Assembly (NCBI GenBank): GCA_001780035.1
Contig: MFEY01000004.1
Span: 81,405-145,404 of the forward strand
Length of the DNA: 64,000 nt
Reading direction: 5' to 3'
From: Candidatus Doudnabacteria bacterium RIFCSPHIGHO2_12_FULL_48_16
GTDB taxonomy: Bacteria; Patescibacteriota; Doudnabacteria; UBA920; O2-02-FULL-48-8
The notes below the pieces were generated by a model. That model was not told the DNA's origin. It searched no databases and worked only from the letters and a program-made list of their open reading frames with translations. Shown piece after piece: positions 884-18,667 of this stretch (its first letter is position 1; every line of letters starts with the position of its first letter). The translations under genes were made by a program, and so were the position numbers.

Positions 884-1038
884 CCAATAAGTATATTTAC
901 TTGATCTTATCTTTAGAAAACGTGGTGACCTGCTCTCCATTCCAAAAATCATCAAGAGCCAGCCATCTATACTGCAGACCAATATCACCTGCCATAATTG
1001 GCTCAACTAGGCAAGGGATGAAGCCTGCGTCAGTATCA

Positions 1039-1410
1039 TCATCTTCTATAGTTATTGACTTTAAAAAAAATTGCTTTTCCCTGAAAATCTTTATTTAAAG
1101 AACGAACTGACTGTGGCAAAAGAGCTTTGAGATCTCGCATATCTCCACAATCAGCCAGACGGCCTTGGTCTTTAAAGTAGTTGTAAATATCTCTTATCTT
1201 GGCTCTAGGTCTAGTGCGATCATCTGTATAGGACCAAAACTGTAATGATTTACTATCATACTCGGATGGACCAGTGTTAGCTAACTCCGGATGTCGCGGC
1301 CTGCCGACGGGTTCTCCAGCCATAAGCGGCATATTACGGTCGACATGTATAATAACCGACGCGTCTTCTTGTTCAGGGTTGTGATTGCCAGAATCTTTAA
1401 GTTCTCCCAT
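1039..1410 (-). CDS. hypothetical protein
   Basis: A 123-aa ORF with no recognisable motifs. It is preceded on the minus strand by conserved element copy 1. Confidence 0.3.
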   Translation of the reverse strand: MGELKDSGNHNPEQEDASVIIHVDRNMPLMAGEPVGRPRHPELANTGPSEYDSKSLQFWSYTDDRTRPRAKIRDIYNYFKDQGRLADCGDMRDLKALLPQSVRSLNKDFQGKAIFFKVNNYRR

Positions 1411-1457
1411 ATTTAATAAAATTTAATAATATTTATTATGATCTTAGCTTTTTCTAA

Positions 1458-1560
1458 CTGGCGGTGTACCTGAGTCTGGTGCCGCCTCTATTCAGAGGTA
1501 TCATAAAGGATTTTAAAAATTCGAATAAAGGACAATTTAGGGCACGTGGGTCGGATTATT
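1458..1560 (-). promoter_or_regulatory. conserved structured element of about 105 nt, copy 1 (candidate cis-regulatory RNA or small ncRNA)
   Basis: This copy is nearly identical to the copy at 2036-2137 (TGGCGGTGTAC...TCAGAGGTAT.ATAA.GGAT...ATTTAGGCA.GTGGGTCGG). Compensatory substitutions sit in the predicted stems. It lies between the stop of gene 1556-1972 and the start of gene 1039-1410. Confidence 0.4.
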
Positions 1561-1972
1561 TCGTTGGCTTTTGAAAAAAACGCAGTTCTTCTTCGTCAAG
1601 GGATTTTGACTCTAGACCAAATTCATTTCGGATAGCCTTAATCAGCGGCTTCACATCTTCAGCCGTAAGTTGGATGATTTTACCCTGTCGTCCCTCAGAA
1701 AATTGTTTTTCTCGTTGATTATATAATTTATTAAACTTCAAGACTTCTCGAACAACATTATCAGAAGAAAAAAAGAATGTGTCATTAAGTACTATCAACG
1801 TATGCTCTTCAGGATTATTACTTAGAAATGCAGATAAGGGCTCGATTAATTTACTATATCTTTCGGCCTTAAACCTTAATTCAGCCTCGGTGCGTAATTT
1901 ACGAATCCCAAAAAAATAAGTCAAACCCGAACTTAAAAGTGCAGCTAAAACTATTTGAATAAAATCTTTCAT
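1556..1972 (-). CDS. hypothetical membrane-anchored protein
   Basis: A 138-aa ORF with an N-terminal hydrophobic helix (IVLAALLSSGLTYFF). It is preceded by conserved element copy 2. Confidence 0.4.
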   Translation of the reverse strand: MKDFIQIVLAALLSSGLTYFFGIRKLRTEAELRFKAERYSKLIEPLSAFLSNNPEEHTLIVLNDTFFFSSDNVVREVLKFNKLYNQREKQFSEGRQGKIIQLTAEDVKPLIKAIRNEFGLESKSLDEEELRFFQKPTK

Positions 1973-2035
1973 GAATAATGTATCTAACTCAGTTTATAAA
2001 AACTACCGTGTTGATCGCTCGATAACTAATTTTCT

Positions 2036-2137
2036 TGGCGGTGTACTCAGGTCTAGTACCACCTGTTCAGAGGTATTATAAGGGATATTTGAGCGTTCTG
2101 GTAGAGGGCGATTTTAGGCATGTGGGTCGGGGTCTAT
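2036..2137 (-). promoter_or_regulatory. conserved structured element of about 105 nt, copy 2
   Basis: See copy 1. It lies 63 nt upstream (minus sense) of the ATG of gene 1556-1972. Confidence 0.4.
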
Positions 2138-2241
2138 GACAAAGAATGAGACAGTCCTTAAGCCCTGTGTTTTGTGTCTTTATTATACCTAGAATTTTGA
2201 GGCTCTAGTAAGATAGGGTTATTAAACAAGGCAACAGGAAA

Positions 2242-2700
2242 TTAATTTGCTTGTCCCGTTGCTGCTACGCTTGGTCGTATCTGGACGGTTTGCGCGGTAA
2301 CGCTGCCATCGCTGTTAGCGGTTCCATTAACGGTAACCTGCTTCCCAACAACTAGATCATCTTTGGTCCCGTCTGTCATTTTTGAGACGGTTGTATTCTC
2401 AGATAGAAAAATTATTTTTGATCCGCCATCTGCAAGCTTAACCGTAATACTCTTGTCGTCCATGCTGATAATTTCCCCTCCAGCAAAACCGCCCGCGGCG
2501 TTAGCGCCACGCATACTACCTCCGCCAAAACCACCACCGTTTTGCATAAATTGCTGGCGTTGCTCGGCTGTTAAATTTTGACCGGCTGGAAAATTCCCAG
2601 CCGGAGTTTTTCCTTTGACATAAGTCATGCCGCCATAAAACGCACCACCCGCGACCGCAATTGCTACTACAGCAATTATCACAATATTTTTCTTATTCAT
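2242..2700 (-). CDS. small secreted/anchored protein, last gene of the ABC exporter operon
   Basis: N-terminal signal anchor ([19 protein letters not shown]) followed by a Gly-rich linker. A paralog lies at 34035-34436. Confidence 0.45.
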
Positions 2701-2731
2701 ATTTTTTCCTTTCCATTAATAACTTAATTAA

Positions 2732-3967
2732 TTATTCGTATCTCAAAGCTTCGATGGGATTAAGCCTGGACGCGCGCCTTGCCGGATAATAACCAAAAAT
2801 GACACCTATCCCCGCTGATACCCCAAAAGCTAGTAGCACTGAAGTATAATCGATCTGACTGGTTATCCCAAAATTCGATGCTATGAGAGAAACCGCCCAC
2901 CCAAAAATAACGCCAATCCCTCCTCCCACGAATGTCAAAATAATTGCTTCGGTTAAAAATTGGAAATTAATGTCCGAACGGGTTGCTCCAATTGCTTTTC
3001 TAAGGCCTATTTCTCGTGTCCGTTCTGTAACGGTAGTAAGCATCATATTCATAATTCCGATTCCGCCGACTAATAAAGAAATGCCGGCTATTGAAGCCAA
3101 TAGAATGGTCAAGGTTTCCGTGACGCTCGAGGCCGCTGAAACTAAATCAGATTGATTTTGAACGGTGAAATCGGCTGTGGCAATATCGCTCATGTTATGC
3201 CTTTGTAGCATTATTTGTGTGACCTGATTCTGGACCTCAGTCATCACCTCGGGATTTTCAGCCGAAACAGCGATCGAGCTGACATAGGCTTTGCCCGAAG
3301 CGCTTAGGCCAACCAAGTAACGCTGAGAAGCCGAGATAGGAACGAAAATCATATCATCTTGGTTAGTAAAGCCACTGCCTCCCTTGGCTTGGGTAACGCC
3401 GATCACCTTGAACTGAGTGCCGTTGATTCTGATAGTCTGGCCTATGGGATCAGTGCCCTCACCAAACAAAGTGTCTCGGGTGGTTGGCCCCAACACTGCA
3501 ACTTTGGAGGCATTTTTTACCTGCTCATCGTTTAAAAAAGAACCACTATCAATATTAAGGTTTCTCACTGTGGGGTAACCCGTTTCTGCCCCAATAACTT
3601 GAGTATTAGTGTTTGTGCCTTTAGCTGTAACCTGATAACGTCGGGACAATTCGGGACTGACGGCTTTAATATTAGTCAACTCTTCCTTAAGAGCATCCGC
3701 ATCTTCCTGGGTTAAAGTCTGAGCGCTCCCTAAGCCACCACTTACAGCAGCCCCCGTTGTTCGCTGAACCCCAGAAGAGACGGTAATTAAGTTAGAGCCG
3801 ATAGATTGAATGTTGGCTTCAATTGATCCTTGCGCACCTTGGCCAATTCCGACCATGGCGATAACCGAACCAATTCCGATAACTATACCCAGCATTGTCA
3901 GCGCGGTACGGACCTTATTTGCCGCTAGGGCGGTATAACTTTCTTGAAATATGTCCCTAGTTTTCAT
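2732..3967 (-). CDS. ABC transporter permease, MacB/FtsX family
   Basis: It has a MacB-like periplasmic core plus a C-terminal FtsX four-helix domain. The likely start is an internal Met (MKTRDIF...) that overlaps the ATPase stop by 11 nt. Confidence 0.85.
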   Translation of the reverse strand: MKTRDIFQESYTALAANKVRTALTMLGIVIGIGSVIAMVGIGQGAQGSIEANIQSIGSNLITVSSGVQRTTGAAVSGGLGSAQTLTQEDADALKEELTNIKAVSPELSRRYQVTAKGTNTNTQVIGAETGYPTVRNLNIDSGSFLNDEQVKNASKVAVLGPTTRDTLFGEGTDPIGQTIRINGTQFKVIGVTQAKGGSGFTNQDDMIFVPISASQRYLVGLSASGKAYVSSIAVSAENPEVMTEVQNQVTQIMLQRHNMSDIATADFTVQNQSDLVSAASSVTETLTILLASIAGISLLVGGIGIMNMMLTTVTERTREIGLRKAIGATRSDINFQFLTEAIILTFVGGGIGVIFGWAVSLIASNFGITSQIDYTSVLLAFGVSAGIGVIFGYYPARRASRLNPIEALRYE

Positions 3968-4673
3968 CTGAATCGGAATTAAATATTTTTTTATCTTTAT
4001 TCTCTTCGTCACTTAAAATCTGTCCGTCTCGGATTTGAATTATGCGGTCAGCGTGCCGGGCAACGTAAGGTTCGTGGGTGATAAGAATGATGGTATGGCC
4101 TTGGTCATTGAGGCGCTGGAATGTGCCTAAAACTATGTCTCCGGTCTTGGTGTCCAAATTACCAGTCGGCTCATCCGCCAAAAGCAATGTCGGATTATTT
4201 ACTAAGGCTCGGGCAATCGCGACTCTTTGCATCTGTCCTCCCGAAAGCTGGTTTGATAAATGATAGAACCTTGATTCATCCAAACCTGCCTGAAGCGAGG
4301 CTTTCTTTGCGAGCTCTTCTCGTTCCATGTTATCTATCCCTGCGTAAACTAACGGTAATGCGACATTCCTGAGTACTGTTGCTCTGGGGAGAAGATTAAA
4401 AGATTGGAAAACAAAACCAATTTTTTGGCGACGGATAACTGCTAGTTCATCATCAGTCAAAGTCGAAACATCCTGGCCATCCAAAATATACTTCCCCTTA
4501 GAAGGCGTGTCCAAGGCCCCCAAAATATGCATCATCGTTGATTTACCACTTCCTGAAGGTCCCATAATGGCGACAAATTCTCCATCTTTGATTGTAAAAG
4601 AAACATCTTTCAAAACTTTAGTTTCTACATCACCGTTAACGTAAGTCTTATAAATATTCTGACATTCAATCAT
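3957..4673 (-). CDS. ABC transporter ATP-binding protein (MacB/LolD-like)
   Basis: Walker A GPSGSGKST, ABC signature LSGGQMQRVAIARAL and Walker B LLLADEPT. Confidence 0.9.
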   Translation of the reverse strand: MIECQNIYKTYVNGDVETKVLKDVSFTIKDGEFVAIMGPSGSGKSTMMHILGALDTPSKGKYILDGQDVSTLTDDELAVIRRQKIGFVFQSFNLLPRATVLRNVALPLVYAGIDNMEREELAKKASLQAGLDESRFYHLSNQLSGGQMQRVAIARALVNNPTLLLADEPTGNLDTKTGDIVLGTFQRLNDQGHTIILITHEPYVARHADRIIQIRDGQILSDEENKDKKIFNSDSDEN

Positions 4674-4682
4674 GCAATTAAA

Positions 4683-6398
4683 TTAACGAGCTTGAAAAAA
4701 CTGTCCGCCACCACCGGTTTGTCCGCGACCAGTGCCTCCACCTAAGCCCGGAATTTGGGTCGAGCCAGAACTTGCGGCGCCAGTGGAATTAGGATTAATA
4801 GTTTGGGTTACTATCTGGTCTCCCGCTACAATGCCCGATACTATTTCTGTCATAGTATCATTAGAGATTCCCACTTCAACCGGCAGATTTTGAGGTTGGC
4901 GGTTTGAGTCAAGTGTTTGAACATACTTCATATTTCCACTGGTTTTCACGGCAGAGCTGGGTACAGCCAAAACATCAGTTTTAACATCTATAATTATGTC
5001 TGCAGATATGCTCATTGAGGGCTTAACACTTTCATCCTGAGTGTCAAAGCCGATCTTCACAGTATAACTTACAACTCCTTGGCTTGTAGTACCTAAAGCA
5101 CCTACTTCTACAACCTGTCCCGTGAGACTTAAGTCCTCAATGGCATCAAATGTCAGGGTTGCTTTCTGTCCAATTTTGATTTTTGCAGCGTCAACTTCAT
5201 TTACCGAGACGGTGGCCAACTGTTGTTTAGTGATAATTGTGGCAACGACTGTAGCCGCTGTAACCTGATCTCCCTTTTTATTGTTAAGGACAGCTACAAT
5301 CCCGTCGAAAGCGGCTTTTAAATTGTTATTATTATAATTATTCGAGGCTGATTGGAGGGAGGCTTGGGCCGAAAGCAGAGATGCTTTGGCAGAAGTTACG
5401 TCCGCGTTATCAGCTGGGGCTAATTTTTCTTCAAAAACAAGCTTAGCATCCGCCAGATTTTCTTCTGCATCCACCACAGCATCCTCTGCTGAATCAATAG
5501 CGTCTTGGTCTGTTTGGATAGCTTTTGTTTGATTTGACAGAGAACTATTATACGCACTGAGATTAGTGTAATATGCGCTGGAAGTTTTATTTGGCACATC
5601 AATGGTTAAGGTTGTGAATGAATAAAGGGTACCACTTGTTCCAAATGTAATGTAAAGTCCGTTGCCCAGAGGTCGAGCAAATCCTCGGTTCACAGAGTCG
5701 GATTGACTACCTAAACCAGAGACACTGTAATATATACCGGCACCTGTTGTATCGTAGAGGCTTATCGCGTATTGACCTTCCGTAGTGCCCGTATAACTTC
5801 CGCTCAAAGTCATAGTGGCTGTAGATAATAAATTATTAGACACTACCGTTAAACCTGAATTTAATAAAGTATTGTAAGCTTTGTCCACAGCCTGTTGCTG
5901 TTCTGTTACGGTAGTGTTGTAATCACGTTTTGCTTTCTCAACATTTTCTTTGGCATTATCGATAGCTTTTTGCGCATCCGTCACAGTTTTTTGGGCTGCC
6001 GTCAAATCACTGCCCGTGAGTCCGGCAATGAGCTTATCGTAATTAGCCTGGGCCTGGAGAACAGAAGCGCGAGCCTGTGCTAACAATACGTTGTTGTTGC
6101 TTTGATCCACCACAGCTATAACTTGGCCAGCTTTAACTTGATCGCCAGCTTTAACATTGACTGAGGTTAAAGCTCCTGTCCCACCAGGTTTCAGGTCAAT
6201 CTGATTTTCCGCCGATACTTGGCCGGAAGTTGAGACGGATACTGCGATTGTCGTTTTTTCTGCGACCCCCGTTACATACTGAGCTTGGGCAGTAGTGGAG
6301 TGGGTTTTTTGGTACCAAAAATAGCCGCCTATAATGGCGACAATGAGTAACCCCCCGATAATCTTATGTTTTTTAACAAAAATAAGTATTCTTTGCAT
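4683..6398 (-). CDS. HlyD/MacA-family periplasmic adaptor (membrane fusion protein)
   Basis: N-terminal TM helix, a long coiled-coil region, a beta-barrel-like C-terminus and a Gly-rich tail. It sits upstream of the ABC ATPase and permease genes. Confidence 0.7.
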   Translation of the reverse strand: MQRILIFVKKHKIIGGLLIVAIIGGYFWYQKTHSTTAQAQYVTGVAEKTTIAVSVSTSGQVSAENQIDLKPGGTGALTSVNVKAGDQVKAGQVIAVVDQSNNNVLLAQARASVLQAQANYDKLIAGLTGSDLTAAQKTVTDAQKAIDNAKENVEKAKRDYNTTVTEQQQAVDKAYNTLLNSGLTVVSNNLLSTATMTLSGSYTGTTEGQYAISLYDTTGAGIYYSVSGLGSQSDSVNRGFARPLGNGLYITFGTSGTLYSFTTLTIDVPNKTSSAYYTNLSAYNSSLSNQTKAIQTDQDAIDSAEDAVVDAEENLADAKLVFEEKLAPADNADVTSAKASLLSAQASLQSASNNYNNNNLKAAFDGIVAVLNNKKGDQVTAATVVATIITKQQLATVSVNEVDAAKIKIGQKATLTFDAIEDLSLTGQVVEVGALGTTSQGVVSYTVKIGFDTQDESVKPSMSISADIIIDVKTDVLAVPSSAVKTSGNMKYVQTLDSNRQPQNLPVEVGISNDTMTEIVSGIVAGDQIVTQTINPNSTGAASSGSTQIPGLGGGTGRGQTGGGGQFFQAR

Positions 6399-6512
6399 AT
6401 GTATATAAATTATTACAAAAATCCAAGCATATTATTTCATTGATAAACCCCCGCTCATAACGGGGGTTAGCGTTCCAAATTATTGTTTTTTACTTTCCTT
6501 TTTTAGCTTCTG

Positions 6513-6953
6513 CTAGAACCACCCTCCACGGAACCCTCTTCCATGACCCTTGCCAGTCCTATTATCTATTCGTTCCTGGTCGACTTTCAATCTTTGATCA
6601 GCTTGAGCTTGAGTGATCACCCCTTTATCCACTAAAGATTTGAGCTGATTGGCCAATTTTTGCTTAGCGGCTGACTTCATTTTCTCTTGAAGATCGGTTT
6701 CGCTTATACCGTTGGCTGTGGCTATTTCAGATAAGGTTTTCCCTTCAGCCCACCCTTGTTTTACGGCATCAACACTAATCCCCAAAAGACTGGCTTGTTG
6801 GGTAAACATGTCGGTTTGACGTTGAGCTACTTCTTCTGGAGTCGCGTTGTTCATTGGACCGAACCATCCGTGTGCCGAGGCTTGGCTGACCCCAAAGACT
6901 GCAAACGCCATGACAGGCAAGATTGTGTAAGCTAGGAGTTTTTTCATCTTCAT
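6513..6953 (-). CDS. hypothetical secreted protein
   Basis: Signal peptide MKMKKLLAYTILPVMAFAVFGVSQASA. Confidence 0.4.
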   Translation of the reverse strand: MKMKKLLAYTILPVMAFAVFGVSQASAHGWFGPMNNATPEEVAQRQTDMFTQQASLLGISVDAVKQGWAEGKTLSEIATANGISETDLQEKMKSAAKQKLANQLKSLVDKGVITQAQADQRLKVDQERIDNRTGKGHGRGFRGGWF

Positions 6954-7116
6954 AAGTTTTCCCTTTGTGTTAAATTATTGCTCTCGACCTTTTCCCAGAG
7001 AGGAATGGGGGTGAAAAGGGCTGTAAAAACGAATCCTCTCGATCGGATTTTACAGCCCTTGTCATATATTACTACACTCATGAAATCGAATTATTTCAAA
7101 AAATAAAAACCGCCTA

Positions 7117-7863
7117 TTATCTAGGCGGCGGCCTTCTTCCTCTAAAGCCCGGAGGTGCAGGAAAATCGTTCTCTTCTACTTTTCTAATAGAATCTGCTGT
7201 GACTGTGGAATCTTGACGTTGGCCTAAAACTACGATGTGATTATCTACAGCAATATCTTTTCCCGTAGGAAACTCTGTCTTATCATCTATTATAATATCG
7301 ATAATATCTCCCCGTGGATCGCTAATCTTAAAGCCTTTATCTATTATTTCAGTTACAGTACCCACAGCCACGTTTCCTGGTGGTCTTTGCATGCCAAATT
7401 GTCGATAAAATCCGCCGCCGATGGGCAAACGATGATCACGGGCTCGATCAAATAACCCTCTATGGAGAGGGGTTTGTGCTATCACAAATCCTCCCGTCAA
7501 AACAACCAAAATAACTCCGATTGTGCTGTAAAGCAATGGTTTTCTATATCCAAAAGAATACTTTTTTACCAAAAATTCCAGGAGTATAATAAATATAATT
7601 GCAATCAAAACTAAAATCCAAGGCAAGGAAGTAAATAATAATCTTGGACCCCCAAATCCTGGTATGAACCAAACACCCGTTTGGTGCAGAATAAAAATAA
7701 TAAAGCTAACCAGGTATATCCCAGTAAGAATCGAGAGAACTGTGCCCACAACCAGCAAGGTTGCCTGCAATAGAAAATGCCACTTCGGTCGCATGATTAC
7801 CTTTCCTGTTTCGATCGCCCCAAGCACATTATCTTTTATTGATTTGTGGTCGTTATTGTTCAT
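7117..7863 (-). CDS. membrane protein, putative anti-sigma factor partner
   Basis: Multiple TM helices. It overlaps the 3' end of the upstream ECF sigma gene by 11 nt. Confidence 0.4.
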   Translation of the reverse strand: MNNNDHKSIKDNVLGAIETGKVIMRPKWHFLLQATLLVVGTVLSILTGIYLVSFIIFILHQTGVWFIPGFGGPRLLFTSLPWILVLIAIIFIILLEFLVKKYSFGYRKPLLYSTIGVILVVLTGGFVIAQTPLHRGLFDRARDHRLPIGGGFYRQFGMQRPPGNVAVGTVTEIIDKGFKISDPRGDIIDIIIDDKTEFPTGKDIAVDNHIVVLGQRQDSTVTADSIRKVEENDFPAPPGFRGRRPPPR

Positions 7864-8443
7864 AATTTATGAATTTGTTATATACTTTCTTAAGTATAGT
7901 TTTTGCCCTTGTTAATCTTACCCCGACCGTAGAAACAGGAATATGAATAATTTCAGAAATACTTTGATAATCCAGGTCTTCAAAATAATATAGCACTAGC
8001 GGTTCGCGATATTTGGGATCTAACTTATCCAAACATTTATTTAAAATTTCTTGAATTTGTTTTAAATCAATATCTTTTTCGACATTTTCTTTCGCCACCG
8101 GATGCGGAAACAAAGTATCCGAATCAAAAAAAGTCAAAGGTTCGTGTCCCTTTTTTTTGATTTTGTTTATAAACTCGTTGTGTGCAATTCGATAAAGCCA
8201 GGAAGAAAATTTCCGGCTAATATCAAATCCCTGGATATTCGAATACGCTTTTAAAAACACATCTTGAACCGCATCTTCGCCATCATGGTAGCCAAAAAGG
8301 AATTTCTTCGAGTATCGCATCATTTTTGCTTCATAACGCTCAACTAGTATCCCGAATTGTTGAGTATCCCCGTGTTTTACCTGATTTGCGATTTCTTCAT
8401 CTGTCAAACTCGAATGAGAGAGGTTCATTAACATATTATACAA
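7853..8443 (-). CDS. RNA polymerase sigma factor, ECF / sigma-70 family
   Basis: Sigma-70 region 2 (DAVQDVFLKAY...WLYRIAHNEFINKIKKK) and region 4 (YREPLVLYYFEDLDYQSISEI...STVGVRLTRAK). Confidence 0.85.
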   Translation of the reverse strand: MYNMLMNLSHSSLTDEEIANQVKHGDTQQFGILVERYEAKMMRYSKKFLFGYHDGEDAVQDVFLKAYSNIQGFDISRKFSSWLYRIAHNEFINKIKKKGHEPLTFFDSDTLFPHPVAKENVEKDIDLKQIQEILNKCLDKLDPKYREPLVLYYFEDLDYQSISEIIHIPVSTVGVRLTRAKTILKKVYNKFINYEQ

Positions 8444-8463
8444 CGAAACCCATATTTTATTTC

Positions 8464-8497
8464 AAAAAACCAGCAGTTGATTAACTGCTGTTTTTTT
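8464..8497. terminator. bidirectional Rho-independent terminator
   Basis: AAAAAAC-CAGCAGTT-gatt-AACTGCTG-TTTTTTT. It lies downstream of the minus-strand tRNA-Ser. Confidence 0.55.
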
Positions 8498-8594
8498 GAT
8501 TTTCCAAGAAAATCTACTATCGAGCGTTTCAGGGACTCCCGCCTTCGCCAAGGCTACGGCGGGCAGGCGGGTCTTGTTCGATAACAGGTTCTTT

Positions 8595-8685
8595 TGGCGG
8601 AGAGAGTGGGATTCGAACCCACGAGACGGGTATTAGCCGTCACAGGTTAGCAACCTGTTGCCTTAAGCCACTCGGCCATCTCTCC
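8595..8685 (-). tRNA. tRNA-Ser (anticodon GCU)
   Basis: The reverse complement folds as GGAGAGA..ACAGG-TTGCTAA-CCTGT with a long variable arm (GACGGCTAATACCCGTC) and T-arm GTGGGTTCGAATCCCAC. CCA is encoded. Confidence 0.85.
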
Positions 8686-8828: not shown

Positions 8829-9389
8829 ATGAAGGAGTCGCAAAAATACTTAACAGTTCAAGTCCTCAAACTTTTAGGTATGGGGGTTACCTTGACAGCC
8901 GTATCTTTGCTGTCCCCCACTTTTGTCTACGGAGCCCTCAAACGCTATGTAAAATATCGTCTCAACCAACCATATAAACGGGAACAAATCCGCAAAGCGG
9001 TTAATTACTTAAAACAAAAACGCTTTATCGCTTATCAGACCAAATCGGCCAAGAAACTGATTATTTTAACCAAAGCCGGCCAGCGGCGTTTACTGGAACT
9101 AAAAATTCTGGAGCTGAAAATCAAAAAAATCTCCTGGGATCAGCAATGGCGACTTGTCACTTTTGATATTCCAGAAAACGACAAAGCGGCCCGGTTTCGC
9201 TTCTGTCGGATGCTAAAGGATTTAGGCTTTTTTCACTTCCAACGCAGTGTCTTCATCCTGCCATATGCATGCGACAAACAAATCAGCCTAATCACGGAAT
9301 ATCTTAAAATTGACGCTTACGTCCATATTTTGACAACCAAGCGATTTCGAAGTGACCATCAACTTATTAAGCATTTTAGGCTTAAATAG
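8829..9389 (+). CDS. PaaX-like transcriptional regulator (winged helix plus PaaX/Cas2-like C-terminal fold)
   Basis: The motif RLVTFDIPENDKAARFRFCRMLKDLGFFHFQRSVFILPY resembles the PaaX C-terminal domain. Confidence 0.4.
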   Translation: MKESQKYLTVQVLKLLGMGVTLTAVSLLSPTFVYGALKRYVKYRLNQPYKREQIRKAVNYLKQKRFIAYQTKSAKKLIILTKAGQRRLLELKILELKIKKISWDQQWRLVTFDIPENDKAARFRFCRMLKDLGFFHFQRSVFILPYACDKQISLITEYLKIDAYVHILTTKRFRSDHQLIKHFRLK

Positions 9390-11311: not shown

Positions 11312-11401
11312 CAGGTGGGGTCGCATAGTGGTTTAGTGCACCGGTCTTGAAAACCGGAGTCGGTTAACGCCGACCGCGAGTTCGAATCTCGCCCCCACCG
11401 C
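11312..11401 (+). tRNA. tRNA-Ser (anticodon UGA)
   Basis: GGTGGGG acceptor stem, anticodon stem-loop CCGGT-CTTGAAA-ACCGG, long variable arm, T-arm GCGAGTTCGAATCTCGC, then CCCCACC-G-CCA. Confidence 0.85.
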
Positions 11402-11409
11402 CAAAAATT

Positions 11410-16831: not shown

Positions 16832-18667
16832 CTATTCTCCTGTCACCGCTTGGGTTTGTTGCGCCTGCAGTTCTTTTTTCGCTTCCTCGATCTCGAGGGC
16901 CCGTTTGGGGTCAGTTGTAATTATCTGGTCTTCCATATAGGAAGCGATAATTTTGATCGCCACGTGCTTAATCCCGGCAAAAAATATTCCTTCCCCGACA
17001 TCGGATTCCAGCAGCAGATATTTTTCGCCTTCAGTTAAGAAGAAAGTTTTGGCAATCAGATCCACCGCAGCCGGCGATTGTTTCAACAGCAGCTGAATGG
17101 AGGAATTAGTGACAATTGGCTTGCCGTAAGGGCTTTGTAAAAAGTCGGTAACGTCCTGGGTGATGGTGGTCACGCCCAAATAATATTTGCGGGCGCGCTT
17201 CGCCATGCCGAATAAAAACTTAGCGGAATCATCATGCTGCATCATCCACCAGGCTTCATCTATGACCAAGATGCGTTTTTTGAGCGATGACCGCACGACG
17301 TTCCAGATGTAATTCAAAATGACGTAAATGGCAATTGGCCGGAGCGTATCTTCCAAATCCCGCACCGAAAATACGGCCAGCTGGTTATTTAGATTGATAT
17401 TGGTGGGCTGATTGAAGATGCCGCTGAATGTCCCTTGGGTATATTTGGTCAGCCGCTGCGCCAACGATTCGCCGCCGACCATGCCGGATAAAATTTCAAC
17501 CAGATCCTGCATAATCGGCGGTTCAATATTGTTGAAATTGGAGTTAGCCGTAATGTCTTTTTTGGCATAAGTTTCCCAAAGAGCACGATCCATAATCGCC
17601 TCTTCCGTAGGATCCAGTTTGCCCAACATTAAATTCATGAGCCCCAAAAGGCTGACGACCGCGGCCCGCAGGACATCTTCATTAGTCTCGCCTTCGATGC
17701 CGCGCGGCAAATCAAACGGATTAACCCGGGAATCCGAGTTGAGCGAGATATTGAGGAAGCTGCCGCCGACGGAATCGGACAAATGCTTATATTCGTTTTC
17801 CGGGTCGATGGCGATGACGTCCGCACCAAGCATTAAGGAGCGCAGAATTTCCAGCTTGACCGCGTAACTTTTACCACTGCCCGATTTGGCGAAAACAACG
17901 GAATTGGCGTTTTCCATCTGGAAGCGGTCAAACAAGATCAAACTGTTATTGTGCCGGTTGATTCCATAAAGAATCCCGTCGTTCGAGGTCAGTTCCGAAG
18001 AGACAAAGGGAAACGTCGTTGACAGCGGCTCGGTATTCATATTGGCGGCGATCGCCAGCTCGTCATTGCCGAGCGGTAAGGTGGAATTAAAACCCTGCTC
18101 CATCTGCAGCACGGCGGGCTTGGCGATGATTAATTTCGAGCCAAGCAGCGACTCGAGCGTGGAAGAAAGCTGGTCGAGTTCTTTGAGATCCCCGGCATAA
18201 ACCGTAAAGTAAATAGAGAAACGGAAATATCGTTCCGTGCCTTGCTGCAGCTTGTCCCGCAAAGATTCCACGTCCTGAAAGGCGGTTTGCATCATCGGAT
18301 CGCGGACGTTGCCTTTTTCCTGGCTGATCCGCATGCTGGCTTCGATGCGGCCAACCTGGCTTTTGAGCTTCTTCATAATCTCATCGGTCGACATCGGATA
18401 AATAAACTGGGCCATATCCATTTCCGCATCCATGTTGATGATCGGCGACAGCCAATCAACGGAAACGAACCGCGGGTAAGCCAACACGAAAAATGACCGG
18501 GCAAATTTGCCGGAAATCTCGACCGTATTCTGGCCGACCCGGAATGCCGCCGGAGCAATCAGGTCTTTGAGGGTATTAAGCCCCTCTTTATATTCCCGCT
18601 CCTTCTGCAGGATTTGCCGCTGCAAATCCCGGTTCGGATCGATCGATTGTGATTTAAATAGCGCCAT
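16832..18667 (-). CDS. type IV secretion ATPase, VirB4/TrbE/CagE family
   Basis: Walker A VVFAKSGSGKSYAV and Walker B RILVIDEAWWMM, with VirB4-type N- and C-terminal regions. Confidence 0.75.
   Translation of the reverse strand: MALFKSQSIDPNRDLQRQILQKEREYKEGLNTLKDLIAPAAFRVGQNTVEISGKFARSFFVLAYPRFVSVDWLSPIINMDAEMDMAQFIYPMSTDEIMKKLKSQVGRIEASMRISQEKGNVRDPMMQTAFQDVESLRDKLQQGTERYFRFSIYFTVYAGDLKELDQLSSTLESLLGSKLIIAKPAVLQMEQGFNSTLPLGNDELAIAANMNTEPLSTTFPFVSSELTSNDGILYGINRHNNSLILFDRFQMENANSVVFAKSGSGKSYAVKLEILRSLMLGADVIAIDPENEYKHLSDSVGGSFLNISLNSDSRVNPFDLPRGIEGETNEDVLRAAVVSLLGLMNLMLGKLDPTEEAIMDRALWETYAKKDITANSNFNNIEPPIMQDLVEILSGMVGGESLAQRLTKYTQGTFSGIFNQPTNINLNNQLAVFSVRDLEDTLRPIAIYVILNYIWNVVRSSLKKRILVIDEAWWMMQHDDSAKFLFGMAKRARKYYLGVTTITQDVTDFLQSPYGKPIVTNSSIQLLLKQSPAAVDLIAKTFFLTEGEKYLLLESDVGEGIFFAGIKHVAIKIIASYMEDQIITTDPKRALEIEEAKKELQAQQTQAVTGE

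Follow-up and report, generated by a model that had tools for sequence, protein, structure and literature searches.

The 64,000-nucleotide (nt) stretch of DNA analysed here (the window) belongs to Candidatus Doudnabacteria bacterium RIFCSPHIGHO2_12_FULL_48_16 (contig MFEY01000004.1, positions 81,405 to 145,404) and contains two copies of a conserved non-coding element of about 100 nt. The source name of proteins identical to those encoded here points to the Rifle aquifer. On the minus strand, tRNA-Ser(gct) is followed by a block of genes running from a sigma factor to a DUF5666 protein, by element copy 2, by an open reading frame (ORF) for a 138-amino-acid (aa) protein, by element copy 1 and by an ORF for a 123-aa protein. 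The two copies are direct repeats with 72% identity (aligned over ~100 nt) and a more variable middle. An original prediction, made from the sequence alone, had placed them at 1458-1560 and 2036-2137, beside small unrelated genes, and these spans indeed hold the shared blocks. On the plus strand the block TGGCGGTGTAC occurs in the window at 1459 and 2036 only, the 21-mer TTCAGAGGTATnATAArGGAT at 1491 and 2066 only (with 0 matches in 100 shuffles) and GGCAyGTGGGTCGG at 1541 and 2117 only. The first two blocks are as originally written, whereas the third had been given only approximately, as it reads ATTTAGGGCACGTGGGTCGG in copy 1 and ATTTTAGGCATGTGGGTCGG in copy 2.

Read in the minus sense, each copy stands behind a stop codon, opens with C[CT]GACCCAC and closes with ...GTACACCGCCA, the 3' end of both being ...GGTACACCGCCA. 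Copy 1 (1555 to 1459) opens 1 nt past the TAA (1558-1556) of the 138-aa ORF and ends 48 nt ahead of the ATG of the 123-aa ORF. Copy 2 (2133 to 2036) lies ~100 nt past the DUF5666 gene and 63 nt ahead of the 138-aa ORF. Both sit between co-directional minus-strand ORFs, and the measured distances fit the roughly 50-60 nt to the next start codon that had been predicted. It was also correct that the downstream proteins are unrelated to each other (BLASTP E = 7.1) and that neither copy has a T-run behind it. Beyond these two, no copy in the window was detected by pattern searches or nhmmer profiles.

The proposed check for recurrence in related genomes of the Candidate Phyla Radiation (CPR) was positive. 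Four further copies, 54-85% identical, lie beside small genes on Patescibacteria contigs (L001, L002, L018 and L019), so that six independent copies are available (window twice, L001, L002, L018 (= L010) and L019; nhmmer E 1e-22 to 1e-28). The copies of L001 and L002 were reached via contigs of close homologues of the 138-aa protein; those of L018 and L019 came from exact-pattern scans of genome and metagenome collections, and the nhmmer profile confirmed both. The scans of public collections yielded few copies (one genome contig and two metagenome contigs), viral-contig pattern scans and BLASTN found none in viral, phage and plasmid collections, and full-text literature searches turned up no paper on the element. 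The closest relatives of copy 2 are the copies of L019 (85% identity) and L018 (82%). Between the window and L018 the tRNA-Ser genes are 85% and 74% identical and the ComF proteins only 35%. Across all copies the element starts with C[CT]GACC and finishes with CCGC[CT]A, the non-window copies ending in degenerate versions of the window terminus CACCGCCA. The most conserved block is ATCCnTTATAATACCTCTGAA, which carries TATAAT in four of the six copies and TATGAT in copy 1.

Every copy starts 1-3 nt past a stop codon, and the upstream ORFs, where present, are unrelated, belonging either to the 138-aa family or to a 255-aa ORF. A comparison of the 138-aa protein with 5.8 billion proteins gave only two close homologues, in L002 (82% aa identity) and in L001 (60%), and in both contigs a diverged copy of the element stands behind the stop codon. 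All three orthologues carry the element 1-2 nt past their TAA, while the next gene differs each time, being the 123-aa ORFan in the window, a dCMP deaminase gene in L001 and a membrane ORF in L002. The element therefore follows the upstream and not the downstream gene, unlike what would be expected of a 5' leader. Distant homologues of the 138-aa protein (P0126, P0128, P0133) have neither the element nor an adjacent tRNA-Ser, which limits the link to the close subfamily. In L018, a contig from a Patescibacteria metagenome-assembled genome, the element abuts the TAA of the unrelated 255-aa ORF, itself located after a DUF4238 gene, and is followed by a terminator and greA. The L019 copy is preceded by non-coding DNA rich in the 8-mers TGTCTCAT/ATGAGACA. 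When the window was compared with L002 in steps of 30 nt, identity fell from 80-93% within the gene to 57-67% over the element and to 40-47% outside. The element is therefore under more constraint than the background and has a sharp outer edge at ...CCGCCA.

The original prediction had likened the 3' end of the element to a tRNA acceptor end, and the counterpart lies in the same window: the last 8 nt of both copies, CACCGCCA, are identical (8/8) to the end of tRNA-Ser(tga), which reads ...CCCACCGCCA. The 28-mer across the junction behind copy 2 has two matches of at least 19/28 among 128,000 window positions, a direct one at the 3' end and trailer of tRNA-Ser(gct) (8573-8600) and an inverted one close by (8501-8528). 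Shuffling of the flanks gave p = 0.004 and 0.018 for copy 2, p = 0.010 for the copy of L018 and p = 0.016 for that of L002. The stretch behind copy 2, AGAAAATTAGTTATCGAGCGAT, shows homology to what follows the real tRNA-Ser of L001 and is similar to the trailer of tRNA-Ser(gct). A sequence of this kind, rich in A and containing TTATCG, also stands behind the genuine tRNA-Ser(gct) genes of the window and L018, with a recognisable version after the copies of L002 and L018; three of the six copies (copy 2, L018, L002) are thus followed by sequence resembling this trailer.

The L001 contig begins inside the 3' half of a tRNA-Ser (T-arm GGTTCAAATCC, ...CTCTCCGCCA), which Rfam treats alike with the two bona fide tRNA-Ser genes of L018. 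At its junction the tRNA-Ser end ...CTCCGCCA is joined to AGATAATTTAATATCGTGCGAT and then to the 138-aa homologue. The homologous junction of the window consists of the end of copy 2, ...CACCGCCA, joined to AGAAAATTAGTTATCGAGCGAT and then to the 138-aa unit. As the homologous position in L001 is a real tRNA-Ser end, copy 2 takes up the position of a tRNA-Ser 3' end. Upstream DNA is available for L001, L018 and the window, and all three have a tRNA-Ser(gct) upstream of the element on the same strand, at 65 nt in L001, at 2 kb in L018 and at 6.5 and 7.1 kb in the window. The coordinates of these features are given in Table 1.

Table 1. Features of the window and, where a locus name is given, of related contigs that share the sigma-to-DUF5666 block.
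Feature	Position	Strand	Remarks
Element copy 1	1459-1555	-	nhmmer E = 2.6e-23; starts with CCGACCCAC, ends ...GTACACCGCCA at 1459
Element copy 2	2036-2133	-	nhmmer E = 1.6e-27; starts TAG-ACC-CCGACCCAC, ends ...GTACACCGCCA at 2036
5' extension of copy 2 (TGTCTCATTCTTTGTCATAG)	2134-2158	-	common to the L019 copy; contains the 8-mer TGTCTCAT
Trailer-like flank of copy 2 (AGAAAATTAGTTATCGAGCGAT)	2014-2035	-	also the 5' end of the 138-aa unit
138-aa cargo ORF	1556-1972	-	N-terminal transmembrane helix; weak sub-threshold DUF6323 match (E = 0.019)
123-aa ORFan	1039-1410	-	downstream of copy 1; no element copy after it
tRNA-Ser(gct)	8595-8685	-	co-oriented with the elements, which lie 6.5 kb (copy 2) and 7.1 kb (copy 1) downstream
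tRNA-Ser(gct) 3' end and trailer (CCGCCAAAAGAACCTGTTATCGAACAAG)	8573-8600	-	direct 20/28 match to the copy-2 junction (2014-2041)
Inverted copy of the copy-2 junction motif	8501-8528	+	20/28; 70-95 nt downstream of tRNA-Ser(gct)
tRNA-Ser(tga)	11314-11403	+	last 8 nt CACCGCCA, as in both window copies
L003 after DUF5666: Phd-ParE and SoFic-like Fic protein	5423-7173		
L004 after DUF5666: short-chain dehydrogenase (SDR)	6825-7517		
L006 after DUF5666: glycosyltransferase (GT2)	5855-6469		
L032 after DUF5666: IS256 transposase fragment	3797-4114		

The likeness to a tRNA is confined to this end. Neither ARAGORN nor the Rfam tRNA model, both of which detect the genuine tRNAs, finds a cloverleaf at the element. 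A whole element derived from a decayed tRNA-Ser was rejected, as the nhmmer profile gives no tRNA match at E <= 20 and the alignment is significant for the last 8 nt only. The earlier proviso that the element might be the remnant end of a tRNA stands in part, for CACCGCCA and for the flanks of copy 2, L018 and L002, which resemble a tRNA-Ser 3' end with its trailer, but not for the ~90-nt body, in which no similarity to tRNA-Ser was detected.

Some further features were noted around the tRNA-Ser genes. The junction-motif copies at 8501-8528 (+) and 8573-8600 (-) (CCAAGAAAAT...TATCGAGCG) flank a GC-rich hairpin downstream of tRNA-Ser(gct) and, together with 2014-2041, bracket the 6.5-kb sigma-to-DUF5666 block; they may form a long terminator stem, serve as sites of a recombinase or date from an inversion. 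In L018 (2917-3120) the intact tRNA-Ser(tga) is directly preceded by two 5' halves of a tRNA-Ser that are truncated in the anticodon loop. Behind each remnant stands the same 50-nt two-hairpin spacer (2985-3034 and 3071-3120), and the second remnant (3035-3070) shows 36/36 identity to the 5' half of the tRNA-Ser(tga) of the window. These remnants point to recombination events that recurred within this tRNA gene. Some 70 nt behind the L019 copy (L019:~3900-3975, minus strand) two GC-rich hairpins are followed by ...GAATCTCACCGCTTCCGCCA, resembling a degenerate tRNA 3' end; neither ARAGORN nor Rfam made a call there. The order in L018:2071-5381 is, on one strand, ComF, tRNA-Ser(tga), tRNA-Ser(gct), cargo and element, whereas in the window the segment from tRNA-Ser(gct) through copy 1 to the 123-aa ORF (884-8685) runs in reverse relative to ComF. 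These orders point to an ancestral neighbourhood of ComF and tRNA-Ser that later underwent an inversion.

The original prediction had seen selection on RNA structure in the two copies. This interpretation is not supported, because the element has no Rfam match, folds at shuffle level, shows a weak consensus fold with a covariation penalty and contains a supposedly compensatory change that is one-sided. A gathering-mode search with 4227 Rfam families gave no match at the element, in line with the earlier remark that it fits no known RNA class. At E <= 10 the 1-kb window region returned noise only, and even at E <= 1-10 no family covers the element at the L001, L002, L018 and L019 loci. RNA folds of either strand were no better than dinucleotide shuffles (z = -1.24 to +0.93), and the same was found for single-stranded DNA (ssDNA) folds of the six copies on both strands (z = -1.96 to +2.27). 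For the six copies RNAalifold arrived at -3.95 kcal/mol in sense and -3.73 kcal/mol in antisense, both with covariation terms that are positive and hence penalties; with six sequences such covariation tests have low power.

As a fold, the copies share only a 9-bp hairpin close to their 3' end (GGyGG-TAC...GTA-CCGCC), which pairs in 81.5% of the cells versus 20-48% in slid controls (six homologues). Its covariation is not above control, as 150 of 500 shuffles reach the score. No pairing is predicted for about 70 of the 100 nt, no inverted repeats were found inside the element, and a weak 4+5-bp pairing of the ends in a four-sequence alignment was gone with six sequences. The change from GGCGG:CCGCC to GGTGG:CCACC that had been called compensatory turned out to leave GGCGG in both copies on the plus strand, where only the partner differs (CCGCC vs CCACC); the result is a C-A mismatch on the plus strand and a G-U pair on the minus strand. 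The CTGAG/TCAGG swap, assigned to the first stem, lies in the hairpin loop.

Coding by the element was considered as well. A frame of 22 codons with the consensus M/V-[PL]K[IT][AS]LY[QP]N[AP]Q[IK]SLIIPL[NK]RWY and a stop is kept in the three closest copies (window 2036-2133, L018:5283-5381, L019:3990-4091). A micro-ORF (MPKIALYQNAQISLIIPLNRWY and stop) was rejected, since copy 1 and L002 interrupt the frame, a Shine-Dalgarno sequence is missing and a manual codon comparison showed no bias to synonymous substitutions. The frame is probably a by-product of DNA conservation.

The locus itself is variable. Relatives share the block of sigma, anti-sigma, HlyD, ABC, MacB and DUF5666 genes, and the genes after DUF5666 differ in each of them (Table 1), so the position after the MacB-DUF5666 operon is a gene-flux hotspot. 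At this position no element was found in L003-L006 and L032, the nhmmer profile included, and among the relatives that differ there no clean empty site was recovered. The 138-aa ORF has no significant Pfam match. Genes near the other copies are defence-like, with DUF4238-Pers directly upstream in L018 and a TOTE PrimPol-helicase (primase-helicase) together with a DUF3800 protein on the L019 contig, 1-2 kb downstream of the copy.

Other parts of the window and its relatives offer side observations. The 8-mer TGTCTCAT / ATGAGACA occurs in both orientations, four times upstream of the L019 copy (L019:4103-4215) and once upstream of copy 2 (2146-2153), and also after DUF5666 in the element-free L006 (5763-5770); it may be a protein-binding site. 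One same-population assembly (L024 / L027, contig ANAN16-1...scaffold_3099) is broken at copy 2, 30 nt ahead of the 138-aa start codon; this is probably an assembly break at a repeat, and it could also hide population heterogeneity. A VirB4/TraG-type P-loop ATPase is encoded at 16832-18667 (-), and with the many hypothetical ORFs at 14-28 kb this region may be a type IV secretion or conjugation-like cluster. Divergent from tRNA-Ser(gct), a 186-aa protein with a PaaX-central / Cas2-like domain is encoded at 8829-9389 (+), followed by a second pair of ECF sigma and DUF5667-DUF5666 genes.

In summary, the element recurs, it stands behind the stop codons of unrelated ORFs, it is linked to a co-oriented tRNA-Ser, a junction is homologous to a real tRNA-Ser 3' end and the locus varies. 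We tentatively read it, at somewhat less than even confidence, as the DNA-level right-hand end (an attachment-site (att)-like or cassette boundary) of small accessory-gene units that have no recombinase of their own and accumulate head-to-tail downstream of tRNA-Ser. Such a unit would start with tRNA-trailer-like sequence (AGAwAATT..TATCG..), best resolved for the 138-aa unit in the window and L001, would continue with one or a few cargo ORFs and would end with the element, which directly adjoins the last stop codon and has a tRNA-Ser-like ...CCGCCA as its terminus. In the window the order would then be tRNA-Ser(gct), a stretch ending in copy 2, the 138-aa unit with copy 1, and the 123-aa ORF; cassette arrays and att sites with tandem accretion typically have this layout. 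Units may be gained by site-specific recombination at or near ...CCGCCA through a recombinase encoded elsewhere, and the block ATCCnTTATAATACCTCTGAA is a candidate binding core for this recombinase or an accessory protein and/or an outward -10 promoter (TATAAT) for the next gene. As neither a recombinase nor an empty site was found, we can only infer this mechanism. A bolder version, which we consider quite improbable, is an integron-like capture of a new type, in which single-ORF cassettes ending in a non-palindromic ~100-nt mimic of the tRNA-Ser 3' end are stacked at tRNA-Ser by a recombinase encoded elsewhere in the genome and build small defence/accessory arrays in minimal Patescibacteria genomes.

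Several results weigh against a boundary of mobile units. In the ~34 window ORFs, including those that flank tRNA-Ser(gct), Pfam detects no integrase, transposase or resolvase, nor was a recombinase or integrase found in the small units or in L001, L018 and L019. No empty site, excised circle or variant without the 138-aa unit was found, 24 same-population contigs being all alike. The criteria for integron attC sites fail, and the resemblance to the tRNA is short: outside the final 6-8 nt, the comparison of the element with tRNA-Ser 3' ends (last 32 nt) is not significant (p = 0.03-0.99). In the window and L018 tRNA-Ser(gct) retains its conserved trailer and hairpin, and the units are therefore not inserted flush with the tRNA. 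Both of these loci adjoin ClpB-ComF and may go back to a single ancestral neighbourhood of ComF and tRNA-Ser, in which case only two instead of three independent loci would show the tRNA linkage. Copy 2 and the L018 copy are 82% identical, similar to the 74-85% of the tRNAs, so vertical inheritance under strong constraint may also account for them.

The most conserved block could be read instead as a promoter, the element being a cis-regulatory module for the downstream gene with TATAAT as -10 box, CCCACrTGC as operator and the GGyGG...CCGCC hairpin in the 5' leader. The frequency of TATAAT or TATGAT among the copies and the 48-63 nt between the element end and the next start codon in the window agree with this idea, which is also compatible with the unit-boundary reading if the promoter points outward from the unit end. 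However, a consensus promoter scan made no call, as there is no acceptable -35 box, and a terminator or T-run separates the element from the next gene in L001, L018 and probably L019. The downstream genes are unrelated and include the housekeeping gene greA and a dCMP deaminase gene, and the abutment on stop codons, the linkage to tRNA-Ser and the junction of CCGCCA with a trailer would be left unexplained; we regard a promoter or cis-regulatory module for the downstream gene as rather unlikely. The same terminators and T-runs, together with the start of the element right past the stop codon, indicate that it probably lies in the 3' untranslated region (UTR) of the upstream gene. The first reading of a structured non-coding RNA could accordingly be shifted to the 3' side, with the element ending in a tRNA-like minihelix (GGTG-G-TAC / GTA-CACC and a GCCA tail) and serving in processing, stabilisation or regulation. 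The preservation of the one hairpin above slid controls and a conservation between window and L018 (82%) on a par with tRNAs speak for it, but the lack of an Rfam match, the shuffle-like fold z-scores, a consensus fold of about -4 kcal/mol with penalised covariation, hairpin covariation within the range of shuffles and the ~70 unpaired nt make such an element unlikely.

Two further readings are less credible still. A non-autonomous transposable element, be it a miniature inverted-repeat transposable element (MITE), a palindrome-associated (PATE-like) element or a one-ended rolling-circle terminus, might insert after stop codons or tRNA-like ends when mobilised in trans, and this would account for copies that are 79-85% identical in hosts whose ComF proteins are only 35% identical, for the strand specificity with a subterminal hairpin near one end, and for the two junctions of the 138-aa unit, which both read ...CCAAG at the point of joining. 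Yet terminal inverted repeats, target-site duplications and a hairpin at the second end are absent, just two copies are present in the 64 kb and very few in the public collections that were scanned, no transposase-bearing full-length parent turned up, and the 138-aa gene and the copy behind it have diverged together; we hold this origin to be very unlikely. Equally hard to credit are functionless leftovers, i.e., decayed duplicates of a tRNA-Ser locus (pseudo-tRNA and trailer) or an intergenic region from a segmental duplication. The terminal CACCGCCA with its trailer-like flanks would fit, and the tRNA-Ser genes of L018 do leave truncated duplicates, but the ~90-nt body has no detectable similarity to tRNA-Ser (nhmmer E <= 20; Rfam E <= 10), the copies are more conserved than the neutral flank (57-67% vs 40-47%) and identity across distant hosts reaches 79-85%.

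CPR bacteria (Patescibacteria) have tiny genomes with few recognisable mobile elements, no genetic tools are available for them, and their acquisition of accessory and defence genes is poorly understood. If the unit-boundary reading is correct, a boundary element at a tRNA-Ser hotspot would provide a searchable signature for gene units and a candidate recombination site that could be used if active. The element may then mark how minimal CPR genomes shuffle accessory genes. Even as a mere promoter or 3'-UTR module it would be an uncatalogued conserved non-coding element shared by distant Patescibacteria. As matters stand, the structured-RNA reading is corrected and replaced by a testable hypothesis at the DNA level.

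In comparison with known systems, the element is not an attC site, not a tRNA and not a member of any Rfam family. Like intrinsic terminators and 3'-UTR stem-loops it has a GC-rich hairpin near its 3' end, in L019 with a T-run directly after it; unlike them, it has no T-run after the hairpin in the window, L001, L002 and L018, and ~70 conserved nt upstream are left unexplained. With T-box leaders (core GGUGGUAC) it shares the 8-mer GGTGGTAC in copy 2, L018 and L019. However, it has no Rfam T-box match at E <= 10 and no stem I or specifier, measures only 100 nt and stands after genes and not before genes for aminoacyl-tRNA synthetases. The hallmarks of a MITE or IS200/IS605-type element are missing as well: there is a single hairpin near one end and neither terminal inverted repeats nor target-site duplications.

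Integron cassettes, including arrays of attC sites without an integrase (CALIN), offer a closer parallel. Here too promoterless-looking small ORFs are each followed right past the stop codon by a ~100-nt site with conserved ends and a variable middle, and the ORFs are co-directional with unrelated cargo. In contrast to attC, the element has no R''/R' core sites (RYYYAAC / GTTRRRY), GTTRRRY being absent from the 3' boundary of every copy, and no extended imperfect palindrome or folded hairpin. Neither IntI nor attI is present nearby (no Phage_integrase among the window ORFs scanned), and the array is anchored at tRNA-Ser. An identity as attC was therefore rejected, since core sites and palindrome are absent and the ssDNA folds are shuffle-like.

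Islands associated with tRNA genes are flanked by att direct repeats, can grow by tandem accretion and have integrase-less derivatives of the cis-mobilizable element (CIME) type; the tRNA-flanked islands of Prochlorococcus are a further example. The present repeat differs from theirs in its length of ~100 nt with a tRNA match limited to the last 6-8 nt, and in being old and imperfect instead of an exact att core. A unit can be a single small ORF here, an integrase is seen at no locus, and integration is putative. As in such islands, a tRNA gene is followed, in its own orientation, by accessory or defence-like cargo, the unit end may repeat the tRNA 3' end with its trailer, head-to-tail units would have a hybrid site between them and the locus varies among relatives. 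As no integrase was found, the units could be counted among such islands only in their integrase-less form. By analogy, the units bounded by the element would work most like tRNA-linked genomic islands and their integrase-less derivatives.

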